A DNA stretch of 64,000 nucleotides from Candidatus Poribacteria bacterium (GTDB lineage Bacteria; Poribacteria; WGA-4E; JAJDTR01): contig JAJDTR010000075.1 of the NCBI GenBank assembly GCA_022827055.1, forward strand, positions 758-64,757, read 5' to 3'. A program made the translations under genes and the position numbers. Under the pieces are notes generated by a model that saw only the letters and a list, made by a program, of their open reading frames with translations, had not been told where the DNA came from and searched no databases. Shown piece after piece: positions 6,227 to 48,910 of this stretch (its first letter is position 1; each line of letters opens with the position of its first letter).

Positions 6227-6235
6227 GCAAGTCTG

Positions 6236-8699: not shown

Positions 8700-8716
8700 G
8701 GCGCTGCCTCCTGCCC

Positions 8717-30563: not shown

Positions 30564-30660
30564 TGAGTCTTCCTCCATGTTAGATTTATGTGAGGTTTAG
30601 CAGGAGTACTACTTGGCAGCGATTATATAGGAAACGCCAGCGGAAATCAACTACTTTCCG

Positions 30661-31606: not shown

Positions 31607-33514
31607 TTAATCAATCCGTCTACGTTGATACAAAAACCATTCCACAACGCTCAGCACGGCTGCGAGGAAAACGAGGTACACCCAAGGCGGGTATCGCAAG
31701 AGCGACGAACCGCTCAGCGTGACATCCGCCGTCAACAGATCCTCAACTTTGGTGTCAACGCCGATATGCGATTCAGATTCGCTTGCGAGGTTGACCGCCC
31801 ACATCTTTTCGTTGTCGCCGTTTTTCAGCGTATAAAAACCGGCAATCTCGGTCTGATCAAAGAGTATCTCGTCTCGCTCGGCAACGAGTTCCCACGTCCG
31901 CTCTCCAGGTCCGGTGATTGTCACGCTCGTAGGCACATCCGTCCCGTCGCCATCGACGGTCCACGTCAACACCTCGCCGGTATGCAGATGATGTTCCTCA
32001 ACCCCCGAACTTTCTTGAAACCACTGAATAGTGTTGGCAATAATCACCGGAAAGGCAATGCGCAGCGGTAGGTCGGATTGCAGAATGTCAATAGCCGCAA
32101 AAACAATTTTGCGGTTGGGTGTAACATCGACAAACAGCACGGGGTCTTCAAATGAACGGGCTAACACCTCAGCACCGACTGGCGGTGTGACTCGGTACGC
32201 CTCGCCAATTTGCACATTTTCCAGATGAACGTGCCGCAGAATCGGGTGCGTCCGTTCCCAATCGGTGATAATCGGCGTTTCGAGTGATTCGCCGATTTCC
32301 CAACTCGCCGGAGCGGGGCTGTTTTTGGGCGGATGGATAATCATATAATTTCCATCATCGAGCGTCGACGGGCTGAATCGATCAAAGATGACGACGTGGT
32401 ACCCGGTTGCATTCGCATCATAGTCCTCCGGCGCAGTGACGCTGAGGTTCAGATTTTCGTCAACGGAAAGCACTTTTTCGAGGAACGGATTCTCCTCGGT
32501 CACAAGCAGAACCGGGATATGTTCGCGTTTGGGTAGCGCGGCATAGGCAACGTTATCGGTGCGCAGCGCATCCGCAACATCCAAAACCGCTTTGAGTTGT
32601 CCGCCTTCAAATGTGAAATTGCCGAAGATTTCGGATTTGCTTTCGCCGGGAGCGAGCGTGTATGGTCGCACATCAAAGAGGTCTTCGTTGAAATAGAGTT
32701 CGACATTAATCTCCTTCTCCTCCTCCGATGCATTGACCACGGTCAATAGCGTCTGGTAATCGAACGCATTAACGAGACTCTTCCTAACGCGGAATTGAGT
32801 GATGCCAACATTGTCACTCGCGGTACCAACCTGAATCGGATGGAATGCAATCTCTTCATCCGGGTTTTGGAGTTGTGTCAGCATGTCTTCGGAAACCGCT
32901 TGAAAATCGCTAAAGATGACAATTTCAGCGCTCGGTTTTGTACGAGCAACGGCATGCGCCAATTCGAGTGCGGGTTCAAGATTCGTTTTGATGTCCGTTG
33001 GGCGGACTGACTGAATTGCATCTCGCAGCGACTTCTGGTGGTTGGTGAATGGACTATGAATTGTTGGCTTCGCATGGCAACTTATCACCATCATTTCGTC
33101 CATGAAGCGCAGACCTTCTACCATTCGGAGGGCGCGCTGTTTGGCAGACTCCAACCGCGAGTTTGATGCGGCACGATTAGACTCGCGCTCTTCGTCGGAA
33201 GACTCTAGGGCATTCATGCTTGCCGAATGGTCGATTATCAAGATGACATGCCGGGCGGATTTGGTAATGAATGCAAACTGGGGTCGGGCAATCGCGAGCA
33301 CCAGGAGTGTCAAAAACAGGAGTTGAAGCAGCAATGACAACAGGTGCTTCAGTTTTTGGAACAGCGATGTCGTCTGTTTCTCTTTGAATAGCTGCTCCCA
33401 AAACATCAGCGTGGAGACTGGTTCGCGGCGGCGGCGGAGTTTGAGAATGTACAGAAGGACGATCGGAGCGGCGAGACCAAACAGAAGAAGAGATGTCGGG
33501 GATAGGAAGTTCAT
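31607..33514 (-). CDS. BatA-like aerotolerance-type protein: N-terminal double-TM domain + von Willebrand factor A (MIDAS DxSxS) domain
   Basis: N-terminal LLLFGLAAPIVLLYILKLRRRR (BatA N-domain pattern). VILIIDHSASM MIDAS motif. Last gene of the MoxR operon. Confidence 0.75.
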   Translation of the reverse strand: MNFLSPTSLLLFGLAAPIVLLYILKLRRRREPVSTLMFWEQLFKEKQTTSLFQKLKHLLSLLLQLLFLTLLVLAIARPQFAFITKSARHVILIIDHSASMNALESSDEERESNRAASNSRLESAKQRALRMVEGLRFMDEMMVISCHAKPTIHSPFTNHQKSLRDAIQSVRPTDIKTNLEPALELAHAVARTKPSAEIVIFSDFQAVSEDMLTQLQNPDEEIAFHPIQVGTASDNVGITQFRVRKSLVNAFDYQTLLTVVNASEEEKEINVELYFNEDLFDVRPYTLAPGESKSEIFGNFTFEGGQLKAVLDVADALRTDNVAYAALPKREHIPVLLVTEENPFLEKVLSVDENLNLSVTAPEDYDANATGYHVVIFDRFSPSTLDDGNYMIIHPPKNSPAPASWEIGESLETPIITDWERTHPILRHVHLENVQIGEAYRVTPPVGAEVLARSFEDPVLFVDVTPNRKIVFAAIDILQSDLPLRIAFPVIIANTIQWFQESSGVEEHHLHTGEVLTWTVDGDGTDVPTSVTITGPGERTWELVAERDEILFDQTEIAGFYTLKNGDNEKMWAVNLASESESHIGVDTKVEDLLTADVTLSGSSLLRYPPWVYLVFLAAVLSVVEWFLYQRRRID

Positions 33515-33578: not shown

Positions 33579-34466
33579 TCAAGACACGAACCCGCCCATG
33601 CGGAAGATTCGCAGGATTAACTCTTCAAAGGGGGATTGCGTCGTTGTTCGCACGAGACCAATCTCGCATTGGATACAGTATCGGTCGAGTTCGTCGCAAT
33701 ACTTTTGAAAGAGGGCTTTGTAGCGTTTAAGGTGATTCTCGTTGATGGTGACGGGGCGAAGTTCATTTGTTTCGACATCCACAAGATGGTAGTCGCCGAG
33801 CAGCCCAGGATTCGTCTCTTTCTCGTCAACAATGTGAATTACAAACAGGTCGTGCTTCTGAAACTTCAACACATTCAACCCGGCAGCGAACCCGCTCGGG
33901 TCAAAGAGATCGGAAATCAGCACAATGAGTCCGCGGCGTTTTGTAGTATGCACGAAGTTCCTAAATGACCGCTCCAAGTTCGTTTCGCCGGCACCGTCAA
34001 TCCCCTCAAGAAAGTCGAGCACGGTGAAGATTTTTCCTTTCCCGCGCTCCGTGGGCAGCCGATTGGCATCTTCGTCCGTAAAGGCGGAGATACTCACGCG
34101 GTCCAGGTTGGATAACCCGATGTAAGCTAACGCGGCGGCAACACGCTTGGCATAAATCAGCTTCGGCAATTCACCGTAGGTCATCGACCGGCTCGCGTCG
34201 ACGAGAAAATAGATGTGCAGGTCTTCCCGTTCCTCGTAAAGTTTCAGCAGGAGTTCGTCAAGTCGGGCGAAAGCGTTCCAATCAATATAGCGGAAATCGT
34301 CGCCTGCCGTGTAGTTGCGGTAATCGGCAAATTCTACGCTCACCCCTCGCCGTGTGCTGCGGCGCTCGGCTTTGATTCTCCCGGCAAAAATCTTCTTGGA
34401 GACTATGTAGAGGTATTCCAGTTTCTTGAGGAATTCGCTGTCGAAGGCTGATTGCGTGTTGTTCAT
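33579..34466 (-). CDS. DUF58-family protein (vWA-like; MoxR partner)
   Basis: Characteristic GxxxSxxRGxGxEFxxxREYxxGDDxRxIDW core (RRGVSVEFADYRNYTAGDDFRYIDW). Confidence 0.8.
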   Translation of the reverse strand: MNNTQSAFDSEFLKKLEYLYIVSKKIFAGRIKAERRSTRRGVSVEFADYRNYTAGDDFRYIDWNAFARLDELLLKLYEEREDLHIYFLVDASRSMTYGELPKLIYAKRVAAALAYIGLSNLDRVSISAFTDEDANRLPTERGKGKIFTVLDFLEGIDGAGETNLERSFRNFVHTTKRRGLIVLISDLFDPSGFAAGLNVLKFQKHDLFVIHIVDEKETNPGLLGDYHLVDVETNELRPVTINENHLKRYKALFQKYCDELDRYCIQCEIGLVRTTTQSPFEELILRIFRMGGFVS

Positions 34467-34636: not shown

Positions 34637-35620
34637 TTATTGAATCTCCTCGAGCAAGTGCTGGATGATTCCATCGGGATCAATGCCTTCCGCTTCCCCT
34701 TCAAAACTGAGGATGAGGCGGTGTCGAAGGCTCGGCAACGCGACCGACTGAATATCCTCGCGGGAGACATTGTAGCGACCGTCAAGAATCGCTTTAACCT
34801 TGGCGCCGAGAATCAACGATTGTGCGCCGCGCGGGCTTGATCCGTAACGTACGTATTTTCGCGTGATTTCAGGCGCTTCCTCCGCATCCGGATGCGTGCT
34901 TAGCACAATCCGCAGCGCATACCTTCGCACATCTTCGGCAATGATGATATCGCGGACGATCTGTTCCAACGCGTTGATCTCCGCGCCGTCGCTAACCTTC
35001 TCGACTGATGGAACCTCGCGTTTCGTGGTGCGTTCCATTACGAGGTCAAGTTCCTCGAGGTTGGGATATTCAACCTTGAGTTTGAAGAAGAAGCGATCGA
35101 GTTGGGCTTCGGGAAGTGGATAGGTACCCTCCATCTCAAGAGGGTTTTGCGTTGCCATGACAAAGAAAGGCAGACTTAACGCACGGTGCTGACCGGCGAC
35201 GGTTACGGATTTTTCCTGCATCGCCTCCAACAGCGCCGATTGCGTTTTTGGTGTTGCACGATTGATTTCGTCGGCGAGGATCAGATTCGCGAACACGGGA
35301 CCACGCTGAAATTCGAAGAATTTTCGACCCTCATCATCTTCGGCGACGACGTTGGTGCCGATGATGTCGGCGGGCATCAGGTCGGGAGTAAATTGAATGC
35401 GGGAAAACTCGAGATCCAGTACCTCGTGCAGTGTCCGTATAAGCAGGGTTTTGCCCAAGCCGGGAACGCCTTCCAACAGCGCGTGCCCGCCTGTCATCAG
35501 ACAGATAAGCACGCCCTCAATAATCTCTTTCTGACCGACGATGCGTTTGGAAACTTCGTCTTGTATCTTCAGGAAGGTCTCGCGAAATTCCTGATACTGT
35601 TGTTCAGCTTGATTGGACAT
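34637..35620 (-). CDS. MoxR-family AAA+ ATPase
   Basis: Walker A GVPGLGKT and Walker B LLADEINRA. 327 aa, typical of MoxR. Confidence 0.9.
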   Translation of the reverse strand: MSNQAEQQYQEFRETFLKIQDEVSKRIVGQKEIIEGVLICLMTGGHALLEGVPGLGKTLLIRTLHEVLDLEFSRIQFTPDLMPADIIGTNVVAEDDEGRKFFEFQRGPVFANLILADEINRATPKTQSALLEAMQEKSVTVAGQHRALSLPFFVMATQNPLEMEGTYPLPEAQLDRFFFKLKVEYPNLEELDLVMERTTKREVPSVEKVSDGAEINALEQIVRDIIIAEDVRRYALRIVLSTHPDAEEAPEITRKYVRYGSSPRGAQSLILGAKVKAILDGRYNVSREDIQSVALPSLRHRLILSFEGEAEGIDPDGIIQHLLEEIQ

Positions 35621-35628: not shown

Positions 35629-37080
35629 CTACTCATCGCTCGGTTTGATTGATTCAAAGTAGCGTTTCACATAAAATTTGTAACCCAGCGGAATCTGTTC
35701 TTGCGTGAGGGCATCCTCGGAGAGTTTCTGATACTTGGTGTAAGCATCCTTGTAACTGACACCGGATTGCTGCCCCTCCGGGGATGATGCAACGGTTTGG
35801 ACAGCGGATGCACCTTCGCCCTGCACGCCGGTGATGCGCGTGAGATTCAGCGCGGAATCGAGTGATGTCAGTTCGCCGAGCTGACTTGCGGAAATTCCCT
35901 TGCCCGCCTTTTTACCACCTGCCGCCATACCTCCGCCGCTGCAAATACCGGCGATACCCGCTTTACACGCTTGACATTCGGAGAGCAATTTTGCCAGTCG
36001 CCAGTTGCGCTTCTTCAGCAGCCCAAAGTTGCGAATTTTTCGGCTCGATTTACTTAGGCGCGTTTGCGTGCCTTCACTATCGCCGGCGTCTAATGCTTCC
36101 CCTGCTCCGGATAGCTCAGAACCGAGTCCATCAAAGTCGGTGTTCTGCAAACCTTTTCCACCCCGTTTCAGTGCGTCGGAGATGTTTTGCCGTTTCTCTT
36201 TGTCAATCTTTGGAACTGTCTTCGCTACCTTGTCGAGGTCGGAAGCGGCTTGTTGGTAATCGCCGCGTTTCAACCGTTGTCCAAACTCGCCAAGATACGG
36301 ATTTCCAACAAACTGCTGTCCGAGCCCTCTCATCAATTCTTCCTGCCTTGCCATCTTGACGGGATCGACCTTGGTTTTCAGCAATGCGCTCAACTCCGTC
36401 ATACGGGCAAGTGCTTCCTTGGGCGCAATCTGCGGTTTTTTCAACTCAAGCGCTCGTTCTTCAATCTGGTTCAAAATGTCCTTGAGTTCTTGGTCTTCGT
36501 CCTGTTCGGCTTCCTTTTTTGCTTCCGTGATTTGCTTCAGCAGGGACTCTGCCTCGGCAGCGATTTGCGGTGAGAAGTCGATTTCGGTTGAAATTGCCGG
36601 GGGTGCGAAAAATTCAATGAACGAGAGCGTAACGAGAAACACGGCGATGAGGAGGACAAATTTTGTCTCTCGCGGAACGGTGTAACGCGCAACTTTAGCT
36701 ACGGGAACCGCTTGTAACCTGTTGGATGTGTCTCGAAGTTGAAGTGTCGTGAGAGTTTCATCGGTTTGATGTTGAATCTGCTCCAACCCGCTTACGACAC
36801 GGTCCTTAAGCGATGCGCCCATGTCAATTGACCGTGCGGCGTCATAGAGGCTCACCGGTCGAATAAGGCGAACAACCAAAGCGATTAGAGCAATGCCAAG
36901 CGCCATCCAGAGAAGCGTCCACTGCGGGATATTGAAGGTAGTCAAACTGTCGATTAATAGCACCGGTAGACACGCCAGAGAGCCGTAGAATAGAAACTGC
37001 GCAAGGGTTTGAAAATACCGCTGCACGGTCAAGCGAGAACGTACTTGTCGGATTTTGGTGAGGATCAGTTCTTCAGGCAT
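35629..37080 (-). CDS. Membrane protein (two TM regions, then a long low-complexity/coiled periplasmic region), first gene of the MoxR-DUF58-vWA operon
   Basis: 483 aa. TM pairs near residues 30-70 and 150-175. Lys/Glu/Gln-rich C-terminal half. Its stop lies 8 bp before the moxR start. Confidence 0.55.
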   Translation of the reverse strand: MPEELILTKIRQVRSRLTVQRYFQTLAQFLFYGSLACLPVLLIDSLTTFNIPQWTLLWMALGIALIALVVRLIRPVSLYDAARSIDMGASLKDRVVSGLEQIQHQTDETLTTLQLRDTSNRLQAVPVAKVARYTVPRETKFVLLIAVFLVTLSFIEFFAPPAISTEIDFSPQIAAEAESLLKQITEAKKEAEQDEDQELKDILNQIEERALELKKPQIAPKEALARMTELSALLKTKVDPVKMARQEELMRGLGQQFVGNPYLGEFGQRLKRGDYQQAASDLDKVAKTVPKIDKEKRQNISDALKRGGKGLQNTDFDGLGSELSGAGEALDAGDSEGTQTRLSKSSRKIRNFGLLKKRNWRLAKLLSECQACKAGIAGICSGGGMAAGGKKAGKGISASQLGELTSLDSALNLTRITGVQGEGASAVQTVASSPEGQQSGVSYKDAYTKYQKLSEDALTQEQIPLGYKFYVKRYFESIKPSDE

Positions 37081-37182: not shown

Positions 37183-37809
37183 TTACACCGGGCTTGAAAA
37201 ATGGACATACAACCAGTTCCGATCAACTTTCCGATTTTCCTGGGCTTCGTAGAATTCGACAACGCGCTCCAACGTATAAACGTCGGATCGATTCATTGAG
37301 GATTTAATCTCGATAAGCATGAGTTTACCGTCCCGAATCACGACATCTATTTCAACCTGAGCTGGATGACCATGAACGCGTCCTTCCGTGTCGTGCTTGA
37401 TATAGTTTTCTACCTCAAAACCCAAGTCGCTCAAGATACCGCTCAGGGCTTCGCGGAATGACGCTTCGGACTGAACCCCCCACCGAGCACCGATAGCGTG
37501 TACCGTTCGGTCTAGCTTTGCCACATTCTTATCGGTCTGTTGCTGGGCTAGGGCTAAGTCCTTAACCGTGGCAGAGAGTTCCGCGACGGATTCGTCTGTC
37601 CTTGTCTGTATTTGTGCAAGTTCTTTGACGCTTTGTTCGGTGTCTTTCTGTGCTTGTGCAAGTTCTTTGATGCTTTGTTCAGTCTCGTTTCGGGCCTGGG
37701 CGGCTTCCCTCAACGCGGCGCGCGTCTCCTTCTGATCTCGGGCTAATTCGGCGACAATTTCCTCTAAACGCACTGAATCCTCCATATTCGTTGCTCCGGC
37801 AGTTGCCAA
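37183..37809 (-). CDS. Coiled-coil + C-terminal PD-(D/E)XK-like domain protein (DUF3782-like architecture)
   Basis: The N-terminal half contains a 14-aa tandem duplication (EQSIKELAQAQKDT / EQSVKELAQIQTRT), encoded by two 42-bp DNA units at 37606-37689. The C-terminus ...VEIDVVIRDGKLMLIEIKSSM fits a D-x(n)-(D/E)-x-K nuclease-fold motif. An alternative start is Met9, which has a GGAG upstream. Confidence 0.5.
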   Translation of the reverse strand: MATAGATNMEDSVRLEEIVAELARDQKETRAALREAAQARNETEQSIKELAQAQKDTEQSVKELAQIQTRTDESVAELSATVKDLALAQQQTDKNVAKLDRTVHAIGARWGVQSEASFREALSGILSDLGFEVENYIKHDTEGRVHGHPAQVEIDVVIRDGKLMLIEIKSSMNRSDVYTLERVVEFYEAQENRKVDRNWLYVHFSSPV

Positions 37810-37835: not shown

Positions 37836-40800
37836 TTACTTGCCAGTAGAATCCTCCGCCAACTCCAAATCCGGAAGAGCCTTGCCATCCGTGCCGGTGA
37901 TTCGTAGATGGAATCCCCAGGACGAAGTCTCGTTGGAGACCTTGACCAAGATGCTGTTTTCTCCCGCTTTCAGGGTGGCGGGAACAATGTGCCGGTCAAT
38001 TCCTTGGGGTTCGGAATGAATATCGGTGTCAATATTTGCTTGAGTGAAGATCTCCTCCCCGTTTAGCCACACCTTCGATTGATCATCACTGCCGAATCGT
38101 AGATGAACTTCGCGTTCGTCCGGAGAGGCGACTGATGTCCAAGCATACGCCGTCACCCAATCCGAGTTCCCTTTGAAGATTTTGTTGAAATCGACGTAAC
38201 CGTCGAATCTGTCATCATTCCGCTTTTCCCACCCAACCTGTCCACCAACCCCCGGAAATTGCGTCTCCGTGTCGATTTGTGCAGCGTTTTCCGAAATATG
38301 CGCCACATTGTAGCCGATTCCCGACTTATTGTCAAATGGTCCGATAACCGACCATGCACTCTCGGCAATGAAACCGGTTCGGTTCATATAATCCAATACT
38401 TTATCGGGTTGATCGTGTTCACGATAGTATTGTGCCAACGCGAGGTCGGCGTGTAGTTGGTTAACCAGTGAATTGGAACCTGCTTTCTTCAAATTCTCGA
38501 CCATCTCAAGGAAACGCTCTTCGTCGCTTGCATTTTTGCCGGCTTGTGCAACGTGCCTCCACATCCATTCTGCCGCTTGCGCGAAATTCGTACCGGGATG
38601 AGTCATGTTGTTCATGCTGATCTTAAACTGTTCCAGTGCCTCCTCGTATCGTCCGTTGGCGACATACGCCCTCGCCACAGTAGAAGCGTGATACCAATTC
38701 CCTCCAATCTGAGATCCGCGCTCGGCAAGTTCCAGCGCCTTTTCCGGCAGGATGTTTTTGTCGAGAAGTCTTTGAGCCAAGTTCACATACTCCCAAGGAC
38801 GTTGCGTCGGGGCCACCTCTTTTTGACGAAGTTTCAGCCATTCTGTGTATGCGGCATCCGATTTTTCAAAATTGTCCGTTTTTCTGTAGGCATCGCCCAA
38901 TAACTCGTGCACATTAGGCCTCGCCGCCATGCTGGTCCTGAATTCTTCAAGGATGGCGATGCCTTCGTCATATTTCGATTTGTCGGCATAGAGACTCCAG
39001 ATACCTGCAAGCGCTCTATCGTGATCGCTCTTTTCTAGCGGAGCGTCTAGCGCTTGGCGATAAACGGCTATAGCCTCCGATAATCTATCTCCCTTCGCGA
39101 GAGTGCCTGCCAACAGGTTGTAATGTTCATACGAGTCCGGTTCAATTTCGACTGCTTTTCTGTAAGCGGCCGCTGCCTTTGCCGAATTCTCCATTCCCTC
39201 CGGTTGTTTTTGGTATAGATCTCCGATCGTTTTGTGCCATCGCGCCTCGTCGGGTTGAAGTTCGCTGAGTTTCCGGTAGTGGTCAATGGCTTCGGTGGGC
39301 ATATTGTTCCACTCGTAGGACTGGGCAAGAGCAAAGCGGGCATCGGGGTCGTCAGGGTTCTCTTCAACCTTCTTCAATCGTTCGAGGATTTGCTTTTCGT
39401 AGAGGTTCCCGGCTCTGTATGCTCTATGTATCGCCGTTTCCGCTTTTTGTCGAGTCCAGTCCTGCCGGGCTACGTTTGCCATCTGCTGATAGGCGTCGAC
39501 CGCCTCTTCGTACCGTTCTGCACCGAGATAGCAATTTCCGAGCAATCCATACATTTCTTCCTGTCCCCAACCACCGCCGCCGTACCTGGCGCTTTCGGCA
39601 ATCGCATCGTGGACGAGCTTTATTGCCGGGGCGTACATCTCTCCGTCGACACAGATAGTGGCGAGTGCGGCGAGGTACCACATGTCGTTTTTTTGATGAC
39701 TAGCCGAAAGCGCAACTTCCCCTTGACTTAGCATTGTTTTAGACATGTCCGAATTGCGGCTCCGGTTGAATGCTGCCGCTGCGTAAAAGAAACTCCGAAC
39801 ATTGCTCGGTTGGGCTTTGGAGAGAGATTGATAGGCTTCGGCAGCCTGTCCGTGTTGGTTCGCGTTTCTATAAATCTCGGCAACCATTTCAAGGAGCGCG
39901 GGATTATCCGATTCCGTTTTGAGCCGATCTTCAAAATGGGTTTTCAACTGCTCAAGTTTTCCGTCGTTTTTGTACGCGGTAATTAGTGTTTCACGCGCCT
40001 GATCTCCTCCGAGCATGACTTTGATACCGGATGGTCCGTGGCTGATCGACATGCCCCTGGAAGCCGATCTCGACAACTCTTCGCTGATTTCTATCGCCAA
40101 GTCATTCTCGCCAAGCTGCACGTATACCATCACCAACTCGTTGTAAATATTGTCCTTCTCCCAGCTTTGGGCAGTCATGTCGAGCGCTTTCTTGTAGGTT
40201 TCGACGGCTTTCTCCAGTTTACCCTCATTCCGAAAACCTCGGGCGCGCTCCTGCAGCATCTCCATTGTGAGAGTGCCCTCCTCTTCCGCTTTCTTCAGCA
40301 TTTCCTCCAACTTGCCCTGACGCCGGTAGATTTGCGTGAGTTGCCGTTCGATTTCGCGCCGATCCCATTCCTGTCCGGTATATTGAACGGCTTCTTTGAA
40401 TGCCGCCTCTGCGGAATCCAAGTCGTCTTTACGAAGATAGAGCTGCGCTATTTCACTGTAGACCTCTCCGTTTCCGGGAGCAAGTTCAACCGCTTTTTTG
40501 TAGGTTTTGAGGGCGTCATCGACTCGATCTCCGGCGGCGTACACCCTCGCGAGACGGATGTAATGAACGCCGATGTCAGCTTCTTGATTGACGTACTCTT
40601 GGGCGACTTCAAGAGCTTCGGCGAATTTGTCGGCGGACTGCAAGGAGTTGACGAGTCCGTCCTGATACTTCGTGTTCTCCGGATCGACTTCAAGCAGCGA
40701 TTTCCAAGCGTCGATTGCCTCGCTGTGTTGACTTTGGCGTGTATAGATAGTCGCGAGTTGGGCGCGAGATTCCAGGTCCTCCGGCATTACTTTCACTATT

Positions 40801-43800
40801 TGACGGTATATTTCCGCCGCCTTCTTGAGTTGATTCTGCTGCATGTACTGTCCCGCCAACGATCGTTGAGTACCGACGTTGAGTTCTCCCGCTTTTTCCG
40901 CCAGTCGGGTTGTCGTCGTCAATCCGTCTCGTCTCTGTTTAATCTGCATCAACTGTTGCTGCGCCTGTTCTCGGGTCCAACGTTGCGCGGAAAGGTCGTT
41001 GATGATTTCGGTAAGCACTATTTCGGCATCATCCCACATCTCGTGCTGCATGTATGTGGTCGCCACCCGTTCTTTCTCCCATGGGCCGCCTCCGCGGTTC
41101 TGTAGAAGGGTGATCGCGCCCATCTTGCGAAGCGTGTTCCGCGCTTTCTCTTTCTCGTCTTGCCGGAAGTAGGCTTCGCCAAGCTTCTGGTAGACATCTG
41201 ACACATTCCACCAGTTCCGAGGATCAAGTTTCTCCGTCGCGGTTTCAAGCAAACGGATTTCTCGCTCTCGACCATTTGCACCGCGGTAAGCATCAGCCAG
41301 TACCTTTAGCAACTCCGGGTTCTCCAGCATCGAAGTATCATTCAGTAATTGATTCACAAGAGGATCGGATTCGTCAAGTTGATCCGCCGCAATTTTTAAA
41401 GATGCCACGAGATACAGCAGCGTTGAATCGCTAGGATCCTCGCTGAGTTTGGCTTCGTACTCAGCGGTATAGCTTTCTACGTTATCGGAGGCCTTATAGA
41501 GTTCAATTAGTTTAGAGACTATTTGTGCCTGTGCGTACGAGTTTTGTGAAATCGATGCACCGTCGGCCTCCAGCTTTTCGCGTAGAAACTGAATTGCTTT
41601 TTCGCGCTCGCCGGAAGCGGCGTATGCCGATGCCAGATTCGCGTACATGTGGTGCTGATTGGGTTGTGCCTTGACTATCTTTTCGTAAATATCAGCCGCC
41701 GCTTTCGGGTTGTTGTTTTGCGTACACTGGTATGCCGCATTTCGCGCAAAATCGTTCCCATAGTTCCGCCCGAAAGACGGCGCAATCATAACTTTTGCAA
41801 GTGAAACCAGTTCCTCAACCTTGCCGGCTTCGAAGAACGTCTGAATTACCTCCCAGGTGTTGTGACCAAGCGCGTTGGGGTTCTCCTCAAGGAGGGTTTT
41901 GAACTGAGTTAAGGCTTCATCCGCTTTTCCGCTGCGCTGCAGCATTTGGGCATACCGCTGACGTGTCCTACCATCTTTTGGGCGCAGTTTGAGCGCCGCC
42001 TCGAACGCCGCAGACGCCTTGTTGATCTGATTTGTGCTATCGTAGAACGCCGCCAATCGCGCCTGAGCCTGGAATGAATCAGGATTCTTCCGCGCGCCTT
42101 CAAGTAATTGTGGTTCCCGCTCGCGCGCGGCTTTGGAACGACTCACCAGATGTGTGGCTCGCTGAAAGTTCCATGAGTGCAACGTCTGGCCGTGGCGATC
42201 GCGTTGGTTGGCGAATCGCAGCGCCCGCTCGGCTACGCTTGCGGCGTCCCGGCCTCTGCCAAGTTCTTCCAAGTGCTGGCTGAGTTCCATAAGGAAGTTC
42301 GGATCACGTTGACTCATCGATAGCGTCATCACCTTCTTGGCAGCCGCGATTGCAAATTGAGTCAGACCGCTCTGCTGCAGTTTTTTTGAGAACTCGTAAA
42401 GTTCCCGGACGCCGCTCGGCGAATTTAACACTTTAGACATCAACTCGCGCACCTTGATTGTGTTGCCGGTAAGCACGGCGAGCTGTAAAGTAAGATTGTA
42501 ATATTGACGGCGATTTCGCGGGTCACTCCTCGCGAGTTCATCCAGTAGTTGCAACGCTATCGCGTGATCACCTGTCTGAATCGATACAAAAACGGCATTG
42601 ATCTTGAGCGTTAAGTCTTCCGGATTATCAATCTGCAATCTCGAGAGTATTTCTTGCGCTTGCCCCCGTTTTCCTTCCCACCAATGACAGTAGCTTAGTG
42701 CCAAACTTGGATAGATGCGGTCTCTCCCTTCCGTCGTCTCCAAATCCGCGCGAAGTTTGGTGTAAAAAGTCTCCTGTTGATTTTTCGTCCAGAGTTGTAG
42801 AAAAACCTGCTGAAGATACTCCAAACGGAGTTGATTGTAGTAAGTCGTTGGCGATGGATAGGTCGACTGGAGCGGAGTGTACCCGCTGTAAGAGTATTGC
42901 GCGTACGACAACGACGCCACTCGCCGGGCGTTTGCCAAAACAGGTTTGGTCCTCTCAAAGAACGTCCAGAGAACGTCAACGCCTTTTTCTATATTTCCGT
43001 CGCGCACATAAGCCGCCGCAAGCGACTGGTAGATGTTTCTATACCGCCACCACTGCTGCTGGGGAATTGAAGGTGCGCGCATACCGGAGGGTTGTCCTGC
43101 TGTCTTTGGAACCGAAAGTTGGGCGAGGATGTTCTCGGCAACGTCAAACTTCCCTTGCTGTGCAAATGCATCGATAAGCGTTGCACCGGTGTTCAAATCG
43201 GTCACGTTTGTCGTGTCAAGTTCGCCAAGCATTCGTGCGGCTTCCTCCTTCTGTCCCCGAGTGTAAAGACGCATGGAAAATCGCGCAATATGCGAGAGGC
43301 GTACTTCGGGCTTGAGCGCAGTCATCCCGTCAAGGTGTTTTTTGAAGGTTCCGTAATCAGCGTTCTGGCGCATTAACTGCGTCAATCGCATGTCCTGATA
43401 AACCGGATCGCTCGGTGACGCGGCAATGAGACGATCGGTAATTCCTTGAACCTTGTCGTTGTTTTCAGTCAAGACATAAATCTGAACCAAGAGTTCCAGT
43501 TTCTGAATATCTCTTGGATTCGCATCCGCGTCTTCCTCGAATTTCCGGACAAACTCATCCAATTCTCGCTTTTGTTGTGCGATTGTTGCCAATTGCACCA
43601 GTGCGGCGGCTTGAGTTTCTTCGAAACTGTTAGGTATCCACGGTTGCCCGCTACCGGAAGAGCGTTGTCCCTGTACATTCCAAACTAAGTTCCGCGCAAG
43701 ATTTAAGTTGCGCGAACCGATGCCGGGCAGCCCTGATCCCGTCTGATTCGCAGTAGCTTTGCCACCCTTCGCCGGTTTATCCACCGGTTTAGGCATTTCC

Positions 43801-46664
43801 AGTATCCGTACAAAATGCGGGCGGGCGCGGTCTAATTCATTCATCTGGACCAATGCTGCGCCAACCTGATAAATCGTCTTCGCGTCCTTCGCTTTTCCGC
43901 CGGCTCGGTCAAGCGCGGACAGCGCCTCCTGTATCAGTCCGTGCCGAATCAGCAATGCCGCGAGTTTGACTTCAGCCTCCAACGACTGACTCCTGGCATG
44001 CAGTAACTTTGTCCACACTTGAATCGCTTCCTGCTCCCGTCCCGCATCGAACAGCAGTTCGCCGAGTCGCTGCTGGTGAAACGGATCCGGCTTTACTTTG
44101 ACGAGACGCCCTTGATAGGTCAATGCATCCTGTGTGTCGCCGAGGTCCAGGCTGATTCTAACTAGCTCAGTCAATAGGTCAGGGTTTTCGTGTTCCCTTT
44201 CCAATGCTCGCGCCAATTGGAATTGTGCACCGGGTAGATCGCTCTTCATACGGTAAACGGCAGCCAATGCCAGAATGGGACTCGTGTCGGAAGGACTGAT
44301 TTTCGACATCTGCTTTAGCTTCTCTTCAAATTCATTGCCCCGACCCAGGTCGTAATACGCTTCGGAAAGTGACTTGACAAAACCGAGCTTATTGTCCACG
44401 CTTTCGCTCAATTCCCAGCATCGCCAATACTGATCGATTGCCTGCCGCGGGTTGCCGGCAAGTTTGTAGATTTCTGCGAGATCCGCTCGAATGTCGGTTG
44501 CTTCCGGGCGAAGACGAACCGCCTGCTTGAGGTAGTCCGCCGCAGATTCGTAGTTGCCTAGTTGCTTTGATATTTCGCTCTGCAACCGATACCCTTCGGG
44601 GTTACGTGGACTGTGCAGCACAACCTGTCTTGCCGCCTCTGTTGCGGCATCGGAATCCATCATGTCCAGATGGATCCGCGCTATGTCTGTGTAGTATTCG
44701 CGCGCATTCGCTCCGTCAATTTCGATTAAATGGTAGTAGATGGCGTTGGCTTCATCGCCTCTGCCCTGCTGTGCATAGATTTCTGCGAGCCACCGATTGA
44801 TGTAGATATCGCTGGATTTTAGGGTTCTGGCTTTCGTTAACACCTCGACGGCGTAGCTAGTGTTACCCAATTTGAAGTACATCTTGACGAGCTGCTTTTG
44901 CCCTTCGAAGGCAGTCGCTGCGGAAACATCGGGCTCCGCAAGTTTCGCTTCCAGCTCATCAATCTTCTCTACGAGTGTCCCCTGACGCCGATAGAGTTCA
45001 ATTCTCCGATCATCCATCCGGTCGGCGAAGAATTCGTTAGGAGCAAGATTTGCCGCTTCCGTGTATTCCGCCAACGCCCCCCCATAGTCTTTGTTTTCCA
45101 TCAGTCGGTTCGCCAACTCTTCACGATACTGAAACGAATCGGGACTTAGTTCAACCGCCTTTCTGCTTGCGGCGATAGCTTCCGCGCGGAATTCCTTTGC
45201 ATCAAGCAACTGTGCCAGCCGATGATAATTTGCCGCGACCGACTTATCGCCATCGACCATCCGATTCCACGTCTCAAGGGTCTTTGCGCGATCACCATGA
45301 CGCAGATAAAACTCGCCGAAATACTCAATGTAATCAGGGTTATCGGGTGCGAGCGAGACAGCCATCTCATATTCTGCAACGGCATCATCTACCCATTCAT
45401 GACCGGCGTAGATCTCCGCGAGGATGAGGCGGGTACCCGCGTTCTCCGGGTCGTGATCTGTCATCCTCTGATAGGTTGCTCGCGCCTTCTCTTCATCGTC
45501 TAACTGCAGATATAATTCCCCCAGTTCACGGTAAATACCGAAATCATCGGACTGTTGCTTGCTTAGGGCTTCGTATTCCGCCGCCGCGTCGCCGAATTTT
45601 TCCGCGCTGCGCAGGGCGGCAATCAAATTCAGGCGCAATCCCGTATCGGTCGGCGCGAGCGCCAACCCTTTACGGTACTCGACAACTCCTTCATCCGGCT
45701 GCTGGTTCTCCATATACGCCGAAGCCAACAGGCCGATTATCTCGGGGTCATTTGGTGACGTTTCAATTTTGGCTTGATAGTATGCAATTAAGCCTTCCCA
45801 ATCGCTGTCGGCGGCGTATATGCCCACGACGCGTTGACGGAGGTCTTTGCGAAGCCAATTTCCCGGTGCCGTCAGCGCAATCGCCGCGTCGTAACTTTCA
45901 ATGGCTCGCTGAAACTCCCCCGTTTCCTCGTGAATTTTGCCAATTTCCCGAAGACTCAAGCAGACGCGATACGCGTCGTCTTTCTTGATCTCCGTTATTG
46001 CTTGGTGTTGTGCGATGGCTTGCTCGTAGAGTTCCTGCTCACGAAACAGGTCGGCGAGTTCAAGGCGTGCGAAAACGTTCTCTGGGTCAAGTTCCGAGAT
46101 TCTCGTCCACGCCTCAATTGCCTCGTCCACCATATCCCGCCTGAAGTAGGCACGCCCGAGAGATTTGTAAATCGTGGTCAGGTCATCGGGCGCTACGGAC
46201 TGCGACTCTTCCGACAACTCTGTTGCCTTGGACAGTTCGGCTATCGCGTCTTCATGGCGGCGTAACACCGCATACATCTGCCCTAGGGCGAAATGGGGAT
46301 AATAATCGTTGGGGGCTAGTTCTGCAGCGCGTTGGTAAGCAGCGACGGTCTCGGCATCTTTGCCGATCCGTTTGTAAAGGTGTCCCAGGACAAGCTGTGC
46401 ATTCGGATCATCGGGACTAGAGTTTGCCTCCGCTTCATAGTCCGCAATCATGGCGTCCAAGCCGGCGCCTTCAAGATAAAGCTGGTATAGCCGGTCGAAC
46501 GCATTTCCTTCCTTCGGATTGCGTTTGAGCATCTTTTTGTAGCGTTGAATGACTTTTTCGTCGATAGTCCCGTCCTGTGCGAGAATCGTTGATGAATGAC
46601 ACAAGACGTAGGAAGCCAAACACAGGAGACACACGACAACTCGATGCGTTTTTTGTTCAAGCAT
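37836..46664 (-). CDS. Giant secreted TPR-repeat protein (2942 aa) with a C-terminal GH2-N / galactose-binding-like beta-sandwich domain
   Basis: A single uninterrupted ORF. N-terminal signal peptide (VVVCLLCLASYVLCHSSTILA). AGGAGG RBS 6 nt upstream of the ATG at 46664. More than 2700 aa of consecutive 34-aa TPR units (W-LG-Y...A...F...A...P patterns). The last roughly 190 aa contain WSVIGPF...KVWLNGEEI...LKAGENSILVKVSN, which resembles the GH2 sugar-binding jellyroll. Confidence 0.8.
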   Translation of the reverse strand: MLEQKTHRVVVCLLCLASYVLCHSSTILAQDGTIDEKVIQRYKKMLKRNPKEGNAFDRLYQLYLEGAGLDAMIADYEAEANSSPDDPNAQLVLGHLYKRIGKDAETVAAYQRAAELAPNDYYPHFALGQMYAVLRRHEDAIAELSKATELSEESQSVAPDDLTTIYKSLGRAYFRRDMVDEAIEAWTRISELDPENVFARLELADLFREQELYEQAIAQHQAITEIKKDDAYRVCLSLREIGKIHEETGEFQRAIESYDAAIALTAPGNWLRKDLRQRVVGIYAADSDWEGLIAYYQAKIETSPNDPEIIGLLASAYMENQQPDEGVVEYRKGLALAPTDTGLRLNLIAALRSAEKFGDAAAEYEALSKQQSDDFGIYRELGELYLQLDDEEKARATYQRMTDHDPENAGTRLILAEIYAGHEWVDDAVAEYEMAVSLAPDNPDYIEYFGEFYLRHGDRAKTLETWNRMVDGDKSVAANYHRLAQLLDAKEFRAEAIAASRKAVELSPDSFQYREELANRLMENKDYGGALAEYTEAANLAPNEFFADRMDDRRIELYRRQGTLVEKIDELEAKLAEPDVSAATAFEGQKQLVKMYFKLGNTSYAVEVLTKARTLKSSDIYINRWLAEIYAQQGRGDEANAIYYHLIEIDGANAREYYTDIARIHLDMMDSDAATEAARQVVLHSPRNPEGYRLQSEISKQLGNYESAADYLKQAVRLRPEATDIRADLAEIYKLAGNPRQAIDQYWRCWELSESVDNKLGFVKSLSEAYYDLGRGNEFEEKLKQMSKISPSDTSPILALAAVYRMKSDLPGAQFQLARALEREHENPDLLTELVRISLDLGDTQDALTYQGRLVKVKPDPFHQQRLGELLFDAGREQEAIQVWTKLLHARSQSLEAEVKLAALLIRHGLIQEALSALDRAGGKAKDAKTIYQVGAALVQMNELDRARPHFVRILEMPKPVDKPAKGGKATANQTGSGLPGIGSRNLNLARNLVWNVQGQRSSGSGQPWIPNSFEETQAAALVQLATIAQQKRELDEFVRKFEEDADANPRDIQKLELLVQIYVLTENNDKVQGITDRLIAASPSDPVYQDMRLTQLMRQNADYGTFKKHLDGMTALKPEVRLSHIARFSMRLYTRGQKEEAARMLGELDTTNVTDLNTGATLIDAFAQQGKFDVAENILAQLSVPKTAGQPSGMRAPSIPQQQWWRYRNIYQSLAAAYVRDGNIEKGVDVLWTFFERTKPVLANARRVASLSYAQYSYSGYTPLQSTYPSPTTYYNQLRLEYLQQVFLQLWTKNQQETFYTKLRADLETTEGRDRIYPSLALSYCHWWEGKRGQAQEILSRLQIDNPEDLTLKINAVFVSIQTGDHAIALQLLDELARSDPRNRRQYYNLTLQLAVLTGNTIKVRELMSKVLNSPSGVRELYEFSKKLQQSGLTQFAIAAAKKVMTLSMSQRDPNFLMELSQHLEELGRGRDAASVAERALRFANQRDRHGQTLHSWNFQRATHLVSRSKAAREREPQLLEGARKNPDSFQAQARLAAFYDSTNQINKASAAFEAALKLRPKDGRTRQRYAQMLQRSGKADEALTQFKTLLEENPNALGHNTWEVIQTFFEAGKVEELVSLAKVMIAPSFGRNYGNDFARNAAYQCTQNNNPKAAADIYEKIVKAQPNQHHMYANLASAYAASGEREKAIQFLREKLEADGASISQNSYAQAQIVSKLIELYKASDNVESYTAEYEAKLSEDPSDSTLLYLVASLKIAADQLDESDPLVNQLLNDTSMLENPELLKVLADAYRGANGREREIRLLETATEKLDPRNWWNVSDVYQKLGEAYFRQDEKEKARNTLRKMGAITLLQNRGGGPWEKERVATTYMQHEMWDDAEIVLTEIINDLSAQRWTREQAQQQLMQIKQRRDGLTTTTRLAEKAGELNVGTQRSLAGQYMQQNQLKKAAEIYRQIVKVMPEDLESRAQLATIYTRQSQHSEAIDAWKSLLEVDPENTKYQDGLVNSLQSADKFAEALEVAQEYVNQEADIGVHYIRLARVYAAGDRVDDALKTYKKAVELAPGNGEVYSEIAQLYLRKDDLDSAEAAFKEAVQYTGQEWDRREIERQLTQIYRRQGKLEEMLKKAEEEGTLTMEMLQERARGFRNEGKLEKAVETYKKALDMTAQSWEKDNIYNELVMVYVQLGENDLAIEISEELSRSASRGMSISHGPSGIKVMLGGDQARETLITAYKNDGKLEQLKTHFEDRLKTESDNPALLEMVAEIYRNANQHGQAAEAYQSLSKAQPSNVRSFFYAAAAFNRSRNSDMSKTMLSQGEVALSASHQKNDMWYLAALATICVDGEMYAPAIKLVHDAIAESARYGGGGWGQEEMYGLLGNCYLGAERYEEAVDAYQQMANVARQDWTRQKAETAIHRAYRAGNLYEKQILERLKKVEENPDDPDARFALAQSYEWNNMPTEAIDHYRKLSELQPDEARWHKTIGDLYQKQPEGMENSAKAAAAYRKAVEIEPDSYEHYNLLAGTLAKGDRLSEAIAVYRQALDAPLEKSDHDRALAGIWSLYADKSKYDEGIAILEEFRTSMAARPNVHELLGDAYRKTDNFEKSDAAYTEWLKLRQKEVAPTQRPWEYVNLAQRLLDKNILPEKALELAERGSQIGGNWYHASTVARAYVANGRYEEALEQFKISMNNMTHPGTNFAQAAEWMWRHVAQAGKNASDEERFLEMVENLKKAGSNSLVNQLHADLALAQYYREHDQPDKVLDYMNRTGFIAESAWSVIGPFDNKSGIGYNVAHISENAAQIDTETQFPGVGGQVGWEKRNDDRFDGYVDFNKIFKGNSDWVTAYAWTSVASPDEREVHLRFGSDDQSKVWLNGEEIFTQANIDTDIHSEPQGIDRHIVPATLKAGENSILVKVSNETSSWGFHLRITGTDGKALPDLELAEDSTGK

Positions 46665-47607
46665 GAGTAATCCTCCTTGAAGGAACTTATGAGAATGGGA
46701 TGTTGTCAGAAGAATAGACCTAAACTATCTGTAGCATGAGAGCGGACCTATGCGAAGTTAGTTCATCTTCGTATGATTGTTCTTCATCGCCGTTCTCCGA
46801 GGTAACTTGGGAATTCCCTTTACAGCAGCGATTTTATGGAGCCTACATTGTAAAGTCGAAGGGGTATTCGGTAATCTGATGTTCTAAGTTGCGAACGAGT
46901 TTTAGTGACAAGGGTTAACTTTGAATAAGTGTACCCAGAAGTTGTGTCAAAACAGAGACTCGCGTGACAAAAATCAGACTTTCAAAGGAAGGAATGCATA
47001 ACACAGTAGACGACGCCGAATGGACACAAGTTTACCATTTGAATCCTAACGCTAACGATTCGACACCAAGGACGAGGCGTTCGGTTGCAACATACTATTT
47101 GGTTATTTCTTTTCGTTCTTCGTAGAGATCACGTCATCCGACCACATTTCATGAAGCTGGGAGATGACACATCTCCGCATAGTTCTACATCAAGAACGAT
47201 GCCAGTGTACCAAAACGGTTAGGGGTAACTTGTGATCGCACAATTTATATCATCTCCAAATCTGAACGTAATCTACAATCCAATGAAAGTCGGTAATAGA
47301 TTGAACAATGTCTGATCGAGCCTTGAAGTCGAGTAAACCTTCAAGCAGCGTCTCCCTAAAAGGTGCATTTCGTCAAGGATTCAGTTCGGGAAATATTTCT
47401 CGCGCAGTTCGTCCAAGACATGTTCAAATTGGGGATGAAGTTTAATTAATGCTGCGGAGGATTGGATAGCATTGGAGGGATAAACCAACCGGATAGGGAG
47501 GGCGATAGCTAATCCCATGCGATAAAGTTCCTAGCTTTGCCCATCCACTATTCACGCCCACCGTTACTATTTGAATCGTTATGGGCGCTCTGGAGCCGAT
47601 ATGGCTT

Positions 47608-47639
47608 GATTCAGGGGTTCATTGGAAAACCCCTGAATC
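47608..47639. terminator. Strong hairpin (12-bp perfect stem GATTCAGGGGTT / AACCCCTGAATC, 8-nt loop) immediately 3' of the minus-strand SBP gene; the T-rich tract lies on the plus-strand side
   Basis: Seen directly in sequence. On the plus strand it is followed by CTATTTATCTTGTT. On the minus strand it sits 20 bp after the stop of 47660..48910. Confidence 0.45.
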
Positions 47640-47659: not shown

Positions 47660-48910
47660 CTACGGCTCAATCAGTTTGTAGAACTGAACTTCGCCATCAA
47701 CGATGTGGTTGATTGCGGCACTCTTGGAGGTGTGCCGGTTCTCGTCATAGCCCGAAATGAGCGTTGCGCCGCTGTAGTCACTCGTCGCCGCAATCTGGTC
47801 GCGGATCGCTGTTGGCTCAAGATCGGGCGCACGACGCATCGCCTGAACCAGCAACCTGACAGCGTCATATCCTAGCGCCGCCCCGCCATCCGGCGCCTCG
47901 TTAAACATCCCGGTGTAGGCAGAAATGAAGCGCTGAGCGTCTTCGCCCAAGTCGTCAGGATCAGCTTTAACAGAGAAAGGACTGCTAAAGAAACTCCCGT
48001 CAACTGCCGAACCGGCCTCCGGGATCAACCCCGGGTTATCCCAGCTATCGCCTCCAAGGAAGGTTGCCGTGATGCCGATCTCCTCCCTCGCTTGGCGAAC
48101 CACTAGCGGGAGTTCCGGGATGAAACCGGTGCTGAAAACCACGTCCGGGGTAGCTTCGGTAATTGCGGTGAGTTGCGCATTGAAATCTGTATCTCCCGCC
48201 ATGTAGAACTGTTCAGCCACGACCTCCCCGCCGTAAGATGTAAAATTGGCGATGAAGGTTTTTGACAACCCTTCCGAGTAGACATCTCCCGCGTGCGTGA
48301 GAACCGCTGCGGTTTTAGCTTCCAAATCTTCGACGGCAAACTGCGCCATCACTTTGCCCTGAAAGTCATCGGTGAATGCCGCCATAAACACGAATTTGCC
48401 CGCAGCGGTAACGCGCGGATTCGTCGCACCGGTGGTTATCATCGGTATCCCGTAGCGCTGTGCAATCTCTCCGACGATAACGGCATGAGTCGAACGATTG
48501 GGGCCTGCGATCGCCGTTACTCCGTCCTTGGTTATCAGCTCCTCTGTTATTCCAGCGACGTACTCGGTATCGCTGACATTCTCGCTAAGTAGGCGTTGCG
48601 TCGGTATGCCGTGGGGCACCAACTCTATAGGCGTACCACGCACGCCTCCCTCTTCGTTCGATTCGTTTACCGCCAGTTCCGCGCCGTAGCGGCTGTTATT
48701 TCGGTTCGGCGTGGTATAGATAAAGCCGATGTTGGCAGCTTCGCCATCCTCACTCGGTAACGGGTCAAGCAACCGTTGAAGTTGGTCACACCCCGCAAAC
48801 AGGAAGCTAGCAAGCAACAGCGGTACGCAAAGCCAGGCGATAAATCCGCGTCCGTTCCGTCGAAAGCGCTGATTTGGCATTAAGTAATTGCTCTTCGTTG
48901 GTCTCTTCAT
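47660..48910 (-). CDS. Lipoprotein, periplasmic-binding-protein type 1 (LivK / branched-chain-amino-acid-binding-like ABC substrate-binding protein); no transporter genes adjacent
   Basis: Signal peptide plus lipobox (LFAGC). PBP1 fold pattern. Paralogous to 50116..51333. Confidence 0.7.
   Translation of the reverse strand: MKRPTKSNYLMPNQRFRRNGRGFIAWLCVPLLLASFLFAGCDQLQRLLDPLPSEDGEAANIGFIYTTPNRNNSRYGAELAVNESNEEGGVRGTPIELVPHGIPTQRLLSENVSDTEYVAGITEELITKDGVTAIAGPNRSTHAVIVGEIAQRYGIPMITTGATNPRVTAAGKFVFMAAFTDDFQGKVMAQFAVEDLEAKTAAVLTHAGDVYSEGLSKTFIANFTSYGGEVVAEQFYMAGDTDFNAQLTAITEATPDVVFSTGFIPELPLVVRQAREEIGITATFLGGDSWDNPGLIPEAGSAVDGSFFSSPFSVKADPDDLGEDAQRFISAYTGMFNEAPDGGAALGYDAVRLLVQAMRRAPDLEPTAIRDQIAATSDYSGATLISGYDENRHTSKSAAINHIVDGEVQFYKLIEP

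Follow-up and report, generated by a model that had tools for sequence, protein, structure and literature searches.

What was a predicted exported protein of 2942 residues doing beside a set of MoxR genes? The question was raised by a stretch of 64,000 nucleotides from a Candidatus Poribacteria bacterium (assembly GCA_022827055.1, contig JAJDTR010000075.1, positions 758 to 64,757), referred to here as the window, in which one minus-strand gene at 37836..46664 encoded a giant protein built of tetratricopeptide repeats (TPR). We found that the giant was a genuine, unbroken gene, constrained by purifying selection from end to end, and that its physical linkage to the MoxR, DUF58 and VWA genes that follow it was conserved across Poribacteria. 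Tentatively, and at a little under an even chance, we read its product as a glycan-binding periplasmic scaffold or tether: the TPR partner in an envelope module of a Bat-like type, grown to about ten times the usual size and joined to a lectin-type domain.

The original prediction had described a single uninterrupted open reading frame (ORF), and this was borne out. The giant was one ATG-started ORF with its stop codon at 37836-37838 and a Shine-Dalgarno-like ribosome-binding site (AAGGAGGA, 46671-46678, same strand) 6 nt upstream of the ATG. The exact protein was present in NCBI/ENA on a 65,315-bp contig, and another five full-length proteins of 2942 aa belonged to its 90%-identity cluster. 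These came from independent assemblies, some on contigs as large as 2.06 and 3.85 Mb, so that the 2942-aa product was common to at least six independent assemblies. The sole named full-length member of this cluster was a 'tetratricopeptide repeat protein' of Candidatus Poribacteria. Two long-read metagenome contigs did carry the giant in two pieces, L001 (2691 and 177 aa) and L002 (2635 and 242 aa). On L001, a contig of 6.5 Mb with the split giant at 1722-10534, the MoxR gene (12906-13890) was split too (188 and 133 aa), and the breaks were therefore ascribed to indel or frameshift errors in that assembly rather than to real pseudogenes. It had also been feared that collapsed repeats might break the ORF. 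Searches for direct and tandem DNA repeats in the giant gene found none beyond chance matches of 21-26 nt, and thus the TPR units had diverged at the DNA level and repeat collapse was of no concern.

A scan of a genome collection with the C-terminal domain of the giant gave 431 matching stretches, and the best 80 of these 431 all lay in Candidatus Poribacteria, a group of sponge symbionts. Members of the giant family were read as stop-to-stop ORFs around the domain matches. The closest locus, L003, came from a related genome with 88-95% DNA identity to the window, and 100% was reported over the C-terminal domain. Twenty orthologues of 2939-2990 aa were aligned with the window's protein over about 2900 columns; they were collinear, almost free of gaps, and 54-94% identical to it. 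The ratio of nonsynonymous to synonymous substitution rates (dN/dS) of the giant was 0.14-0.21 overall and stayed between 0.10 and 0.26 in every 300-codon window. Since the orthologues were almost gap-free and collinear and dN/dS was low, we concluded that the whole length was under purifying selection and that the register of the repeats was fixed. Constraint over the whole length together with a fixed register is unusual for a repeat protein. Among the 20 orthologues, the most conserved parts were the N-terminal 900 residues and residues 1200-1700, and the least conserved was the C-terminal quarter.

The co-oriented membrane protein, moxR, DUF58 and vWA genes that had been proposed next to the giant were confirmed by Pfam matches and hydropathy, all on the minus strand. 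A membrane protein of 483 aa (35629..37080), for which hydropathy gave three transmembrane segments and a charged region resembling a coiled coil, matched no Pfam or NCBIfam family. It was followed by a MoxR-type AAA+ ATPase (34637..35620; Pfam AAA_3, 7e-62, and AAA_lid_2), a VWA-like DUF58 protein (33579..34466; 4e-38) and a membrane protein of 635 aa (31607..33514) with BatA-N (6e-14) and VWA (VWA_2, 1e-15) matches and the double-transmembrane domain TIGR02226. Hydropathy gave the last of these two N-terminal and one C-terminal transmembrane segments. As in Bat-type clusters, an AAA_3 MoxR gene thus adjoined co-directional genes for a DUF58 protein and a BatA-N+VWA membrane protein.

This arrangement was not peculiar to the window. 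In 28 loci found through the giant's domain, the 483-aa gene lay directly downstream of the giant, and MoxR, DUF58 and VWA followed wherever the sequence reached that far; identities across related loci were 82-98% for MoxR, 51-96% for the 483-aa protein and 63-90% for the VWA protein. In the opposite direction, we started from two homologues of the 483-aa protein that were among the most distant ones listed, and in both loci (L084 and L085) a TPR giant of some 3000 aa again stood upstream. In L084 the giant was directly adjacent, with spacings of 44, 23, -1 and 24 bp through the cluster, which there contained a second VWA gene. Altogether, the giant stood upstream of the 483-aa gene in every locus examined (about 30 in Poribacteria). 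The upstream side of the giant was not conserved, and the giant therefore marked the 5' edge of the conserved block. The 483-aa protein had 265 homologues; among 120 of them listed, none had a Pfam domain and the few named ones were called hypothetical. It was a conserved hypothetical protein, restricted to Poribacteria at this search depth, and was apparently an uncharacterised, Poribacteria-specific core member of the MoxR cluster. The protein ended in a conserved motif (...QEQIPLGYKFYVKRYFESIKP).

It had further been proposed that the giant headed an operon with a PD-(D/E)XK-like gene and the MoxR genes. The linkage itself was conserved, as described above; a single transcription unit was at best plausible in some lineages and was probably not universal. 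In the window, the gaps from the giant through the VWA gene were 50, 102, 8, 170 and 64 bp, and tight spacing was seen in L084, L014, L046 and L068. Consensus scans for promoters and terminators performed at or below chance and were uninformative on operon structure, with no terminator-like site in the intergenic gaps. The predicted neighbour of the giant did have DUF3782 and PDDEXK_10 matches (37183..37785, minus strand, or to 37809 with a TTG start), although it was not a conserved part of the cluster. It was a lineage-specific insert with a truncated 3' end, and the PDDEXK_10 profile was matched only at positions 2-48 of 74. The 26-bp gap proposed between it and the giant holds only with the TTG start; the ATG at 37785, conserved in L003, gives 50 bp. 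We compared this slot in the window and in L001-L008, L011, L024 and L038. The DUF3782/PDDEXK_10 gene was present only in the closest relatives L001-L007 and was reduced to a fragment in L004, for which reason we rejected it as a conserved cluster member. The C-terminus of the window's copy diverged from those of L001 and L002 and had no last part of the nuclease-like domain. Elsewhere the slot contained an oppositely oriented IS5-like fragment (L038), a 340-aa ORF (L024) or a 225-aa secreted protein (L011). The slot between the giant and the 483-aa gene was an insertion hot spot. A 21-bp tandem repeat (37611-37678) was noted in the repetitive, coiled-coil-like N-terminal part of the PDDEXK_10 gene, and this part of the protein was longer in the L002 (258 aa) and L006 (297 aa) copies.

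The giant itself began with what looked like a Sec-type signal peptide cleaved by signal peptidase I (residues 1-29, MLEQKTHR-VVVCLLCLASYVLC-HSSTILA followed by QD; 46578..46664, minus strand). Residues 9-29 formed its sole hydrophobic segment, the only place where the 19-residue Kyte-Doolittle mean exceeded 1.6. By manual criteria the segment had the expected n-h-c pattern, with K5 and R8, a hydrophobic core at residues 9-22 and a cleavage site between ILA and QD. A basic start followed by a hydrophobic core and A-Q-D/E recurred in 19 of the 20 orthologues, commonly with cleavage as ...TFAQ before DE or ...TLAQ before DE, and no lipobox was found in this region of the giant or the orthologues. 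The secreted nature proposed for the protein was therefore upheld as a prediction, and the giant was probably exported through Sec and stayed in the periplasm or cell envelope.

Behind the signal peptide, TPR and TPR-like helices spanned about 2730 residues (approximately residues 40-2760; 38385..46547, minus strand), as judged from Pfam TPR families and a profile built from the giant itself. The protein contained multiple 34-residue repeats above the Pfam gathering thresholds; 14 TPR-type families matched far above them, including TPR_19 (284 bits against a cutoff of 25), TPR_2 (232 bits), TPR_14 (217 bits) and TPR_16. Two short low-complexity linkers lay near residues 955-1010 and 1190-1290. 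When the TPR-poor centre (residues 900-1560; stretch 919-1535) and the other gaps were searched for a hidden non-TPR globular domain, only weaker TPR-type matches appeared. The long array proposed for the giant was thus real, while the proposed count of about 80 units was an upper bound given by the length: the self-profile detected about 40.

At the C-terminus, residues 2765-2942 (178 aa; 37839..38372, minus strand) formed a PA14-like beta-sandwich in a model of high confidence. The single domain sequence gave no significant Pfam, NCBIfam or PDB sequence match. An AlphaFold2 model built from 47 diverse family members was all-beta, with a mean predicted local distance difference test (pLDDT) score of 91.8 and a predicted template modelling (pTM) score of 0.89, and had the beta-sandwich fold of PA14 domains. 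It superseded a first model from a shallow alignment of 17 sequences, which reached a pLDDT of 61.9 and had no significant fold match. In a Foldseek search against the PDB, the top matches were the Flo5, Flo1, Lg-Flo1 and Cea1A lectins, an RsgI-type PA14 domain (6qdi) and domain 1 of anthrax protective antigen; the PA14 inserts of Kluyveromyces and Streptomyces beta-glucosidases and the PA14 domain of the Marinomonas adhesin MpAFP belonged to this top group as well. All had a probability of about 1.0, E-values of 1e-4 to 2e-3 and template modelling (TM) scores of 0.43-0.50. GH2 beta-glucuronidases and beta-galactosidases, together with one family 35 carbohydrate-binding module (CBM35), were interleaved at slightly worse scores. 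The family sequence profile likewise reached E=3.7e-4 with RsgI3, whose PA14 sensor is a tandem, and about 0.09 with GH2 enzymes (CsxA, GUS).

A further link to PA14 was the pair Asp2860-Asp2861 (GSDDQSKVWLNG; 38082..38087, minus strand), a putative equivalent of the calcium- and sugar-site pair known as DcisD. Each of the two residues was at least 90% conserved in the 47-sequence family alignment, where the pair sat in a nearly invariant GSDD-x-x-K-V-W-L-N-G strand. HMMER placed it opposite the DD of the RsgI3 PA14-A copy (TVTDDGVRLWVDG), with NG at this position in the PA14-B copy. In RsgI3, the DD of PA14-A is the DcisD calcium- and sugar-binding motif, and the N-G replacement is the non-binding variant (PMC6852018). 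Because of the top fold matches, the RsgI3 profile match and the aligned DD pair, we regard the domain as a divergent PA14-like module of what would be the carbohydrate-binding type. The original prediction had called it a GH2-N-like sugar-binding jellyroll. A beta-sandwich of carbohydrate-binding type was supported; GH2-N as the best match was not, as PA14 structures ranked higher. The domain search favoured PA14 over GH2 in both profile and fold, with neither reaching the Pfam threshold. In the window's domain itself, PA14 (PF07691) had no match even at E up to 10 and stayed below the Pfam gathering threshold; Glyco_hydro_2_N (PF02837) had no match either, and the giant had no GH2 catalytic domain. 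Sub-threshold matches at E up to 1 occurred among the 47 relatives, with PA14 in 16 of them (best E 8.4e-4), RhaB_D2 in 12 and Glyco_hydro_2_N in 10.

An exhaustive profile search at E up to 1e-3 returned 12,080 representative clusters (50% identity) for this domain, and we found no Pfam or NCBIfam model for the family, a candidate for a new one in the vicinity of PA14 and GH2_N. Among the 150 best hits (family sequences are referred to as P0019-P0166), the domain stood at the very C-terminus in 124 of 176 full-length copies, and it followed TPR arrays in 6 of the 10 hits scanned against Pfam. Its other partners were FG-GAP, fn3, GHL15, FHA (P0133) and, directly downstream in P0150, a HisKA kinase fragment. 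We rejected the idea that the domain was intrinsically tied to MoxR, since P0105, from another phylum, had unrelated neighbours.

Within Poribacteria, the family had several architectures. The group of the window's gene had 2939-2990 aa and one C-terminal domain; paralogous giants had 3100-3500 aa and either one or two C-terminal domains, with a LamG domain inside some of them; and shorter paralogues had 1200-1500 aa and two C-terminal domains. Tandem pairs or triplets of giants were found in some genomes. In L083 (1-29450), L009, L010, L028, L035 and L085, two or three tandem giants of about 3000 aa were followed by several LamG+TPR proteins of 650-750 aa, and some paralogues in these genomes combined an internal Laminin_G_3/Toxin_R_bind_N domain with two C-terminal PA14-like domains.

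Three small Laminin_G_3 proteins, of a concanavalin-like lectin fold by Pfam, were encoded one after another directly behind the VWA gene (30661-31215, 29784-30578 and 28342-29091, minus strand), at least one of them with a signal-peptide-like N-terminus by hydropathy. LamG proteins also followed the VWA gene in L001-L008 and stood beside paralogous giants elsewhere, which suggests a functional tie between giants and LamG proteins.

How might these parts work together? In Bat-type clusters, TPR and VWA proteins have been proposed to form a membrane-associated complex, and MoxR is thought to serve the metal ion-dependent adhesion site (MIDAS) of the VWA domain (PMC3557215; PMC5700661). In BB0173, a BatA-like protein, the VWA domain lies on the periplasmic side (PMC5700661). 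On the most parsimonious reading, the long TPR solenoid of fixed length would be a scaffold or tether in the envelope. One end might dock through the PA14-like domain on a glycan polymer, which could be peptidoglycan, an exopolysaccharide of the cell's own or a glycan of the sponge matrix. The TPR surface could recruit partners in the periplasm, among them the VWA domain of the BatA-like membrane protein, which would face it, and perhaps the small LamG proteins, while MoxR and DUF58, acting from the cytoplasm, may assemble or remodel the VWA complex. That the giant was fixed in length and uniformly constrained favours such a structural role over that of a fast-evolving host effector, and the absence of an outer-membrane sorting signal favours the periplasm. 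In contrast, a nearby WD40 beta-propeller protein of 832 aa (23256-25754, plus strand) ended in an FlgD_ig domain, the C-terminal sorting-domain signature of the type IX secretion system (T9SS) that Kamke et al. 2014 (PMC3909097) had described in WD40 proteins of Poribacteria.

Several observations weighed against this reading of the giant as a glycan-binding scaffold of a Bat-like module. The gap between the giant and the 483-aa gene ranged from 39 bp to 1.5 kb and accepted unrelated inserts; with a slot so variable, the giant and the MoxR genes are unlikely to be obligatorily co-transcribed. In L085 the giant was 9.3 kb away, with three other repeat-protein genes between it and the 483-aa gene. 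Paralogous giants in the same genomes sat away from any MoxR genes, and the same beta-sandwich domain occurred without MoxR neighbours in P0105. The C-terminal domain failed the Pfam thresholds for both PA14 and GH2_N, and sugar binding was therefore inferred from likeness of fold and profile. Its loop at domain residues 112-127 (pLDDT 74-82) held a conserved D-x-D and had no assigned Asn of the DcisD-N motif. Finally, the function has not been established even for classical Bat clusters (PMC3557215).

The scaffold reading also has a bolder form, which we consider quite improbable. The giant would then be a Poribacteria-specific envelope 'ruler' or strut of fixed length, a TPR superhelix of about 80 hairpins and tens of nm, of which one end would be fixed to a layer of glycan by a calcium-dependent PA14-like lectin domain and which MoxR-VWA proteins in the inner membrane would load or remodel. 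The strut, its tandem paralogues and the LamG proteins would jointly constitute an undescribed system for organising the envelope or matrix. If true, this system might be linked to the unusual cell architecture of these sponge symbionts or to their attachment to the host matrix.

Among the alternatives, the one that survived best was a 'eukaryote-like' repeat adhesin or effector for host interaction, released or displayed on the surface, with the proximity to MoxR being incidental or regulatory. Sponge glycans would be the ligands of the PA14-like domain and host proteins those of the TPR array, one possible benefit being escape from phagocytosis. TPR was the most enriched 'eukaryote-like' repeat class in Poribacteria, and a host role has been proposed for it (PMC3909097). 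The giant family was strongly expanded in these sponge-associated bacteria, with several members per genome and the tandem arrays of two or three giants; paralogues carried LamG and a second PA14-like domain, and PA14 domains are typical of adhesins such as flocculins and Marinomonas MpAFP. Nevertheless, we found no outer-membrane secretion or sorting signal in the giant, whose C-terminus was PA14-like and not a T9SS-type C-terminal domain. Repeat proteins that face a host usually evolve quickly and differ in copy number, but here the length and register of the orthologues were fixed and purifying selection was uniform. Moreover, in the loci examined the window's orthologue group was always linked to the MoxR-VWA module. 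We therefore judged the host-interaction explanation unlikely, if worth keeping in mind.

Less probable still, and in our view rather doubtful, was a periplasmic TPR scaffold of polysaccharide export or assembly in the manner of PrsT, BcsC, PgaA and PelB, in which the PA14-like domain would hold the nascent polymer. The best NCBIfam matches of the giant were indeed to TPR proteins of the periplasmic envelope and of polysaccharide assembly (PrsT, PilW, LapB, PgaA and BcsC), led by PrsT (TIGR02917) with 400 bits against a cutoff of 312 over seven matched stretches, and the C-terminal domain was of a carbohydrate-binding type by its predicted fold. These scores, however, were sums of generic TPR matches over a repeat protein of 2942 aa. 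The conserved neighbourhood contained no glycosyltransferase, exosortase, PEP-CTERM, porin or synthase gene, and the giant had no beta-barrel porin domain.

The closest sequence-level relatives with a solved structure, the polysaccharide-sensing PA14 dyads of RsgI3 (PMC6852018), raised the alternative of an envelope sensor, in which the PA14-like domain, like that of RsgI anti-sigma factors, would sense polysaccharide outside the cytoplasm and the signal would pass along the TPR array to the membrane proteins of the downstream genes. The occurrence of the same domain directly upstream of HisKA in P0150 and with FHA in P0133 pointed the same way. We consider this highly improbable: the giant had no transmembrane segment or output domain, 2700 scaffold residues are unnecessary for signalling, and the conserved cluster contained no sigma/anti-sigma pair or two-component system. 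Last, the notion of an assembly artefact or decaying pseudogene, suggested by the two-piece copies in L001 and L002, had practically no chance and was excluded by the split of MoxR itself in L001, an identical product from six or more independent assemblies, about 20 species-level genomes with intact orthologues (2939-2990 aa), a dN/dS of about 0.15 throughout and a gene without internal DNA repeats.

The remaining features of the locus concerned its two sides. About 130 bp of proximal upstream DNA (46665..46799, minus strand), a putative promoter or 5' untranslated region of the giant, were conserved in close relatives; by blastn the block was 73-92% identical in L001, L003, L005 and L007 and continuously identical in L002. 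A weak promoter-like site lay just upstream of it (46859-46831), of a kind that was not above chance in the region. At the far end of the intergenic region of about 1 kb upstream of the giant, a perfect hairpin with a 12-bp stem (47608-47639, GATTCAGGGGTT...AACCCCTGAATC) lay just 3' of a gene for a periplasmic binding protein (47660-48910, minus strand); it may act as a terminator between that gene and the giant. An Rfam search of the window gave no match. Inside the giant gene, a GTG-started antisense ORF of 355 aa (40038-41105, plus strand) was most likely just a shadow of the coding strand, which is strongly skewed (AT skew -0.12 to -0.24 over 38-46 kb). The last co-directional gene on the downstream side encoded a protein of 643 aa with DUF6785 (1.7e-144) and DUF6784 (4e-31) matches (26212..28143, minus strand); its membership in the cluster was uncertain, and this stretch had an unusual positive AT skew (0.155).

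All parts of the giant system were of known kinds, namely TPR, a PA14-like fold and a Bat-like MoxR-VWA cluster, and in the literature searched we found no published description of the giant family or of the Poribacteria MoxR cluster. MoxR-VWA clusters of the Bat type are widespread. A predicted exported TPR partner of about 3000 residues, with a length constant throughout the phylum and a lectin-type domain, points to a glycan-linked periplasmic scaffold among the targets of the MoxR-VWA module. The giant provides a concrete, testable partner for such a module. The analysis also delimited a beta-sandwich family of very large size, akin to PA14 and GH2-N and typically located C-terminal to TPR arrays, and it traced some of the often-cited TPR enrichment of Poribacteria to one particular family, an expanded set of giant proteins that join TPR to a lectin-type domain.

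Compared with known systems, the locus most resembled the Bat clusters of Bacteroides, Leptospira, Borrelia and Francisella. It shared with them the co-directional MoxR (AAA_3), DUF58 and BatA-N+VWA genes, a second VWA protein in some Poribacteria (L084) and a TPR protein in the cluster, there proposed as a scaffold of a membrane or periplasmic complex (PMC3557215; PMC5700661). On the other hand, the Bat TPR partners have a few hundred residues, against 2942 in the giant, and are anchored by transmembrane helices, whereas the giant had a predicted cleavable signal peptide; BatE ends in SH3 and the giant in its PA14-like domain. Hydropathy and Pfam showed neither SH3 nor a transmembrane segment beyond the signal peptide in the giant. 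The Bat TPR genes lie downstream of the cluster while the giant was upstream, the Poribacteria cluster included the phylum-specific 483-aa membrane protein, and no BatD-family match was found among the neighbours in the window. In an NCBIfam comparison, no orthology of the giant to BatC or BatE emerged beyond generic TPR similarity. The original prediction's notion of an enlarged BatC/BatE component was therefore an analogy.

With PrsT (TIGR02917), BcsC, PgaA, PelB, LapB and PilW, the giant shared the order of a signal peptide and a long TPR array. It was three to ten times longer than these proteins, it had no porin or lipoprotein signature, and its locus had no nearby polysaccharide synthesis genes. 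The jelly rolls of GH2_N (PF02837) and RhaB_D2, which are galactose-binding-domain-like, resembled the C-terminal domain as second-tier folds and through weak matches over the 'VWLNG...L..G.N.L.VKV' strands. Their scores were below threshold and PA14 ranked higher; in addition, GH2_N is followed by a GH2 catalytic barrel, which the giant lacked.

The nearest likeness of the C-terminal domain was to the PA14 lectins (PF07691), a group that includes Flo1, Flo5, Epa, MpAFP, RsgI and anthrax protective antigen. According to Foldseek it had the same beta-sandwich fold, and it also had the conserved strand xDDGxxxWxxG, in which the two Asp residues align with the calcium site DcisD. It differed in falling below the Pfam threshold, in TM scores of 0.43-0.50 and in having no assigned Asn of DcisD-N. 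In the giant family, moreover, the domain was placed on the C-terminus of TPR arrays instead of on glycosidases or adhesin stalks.

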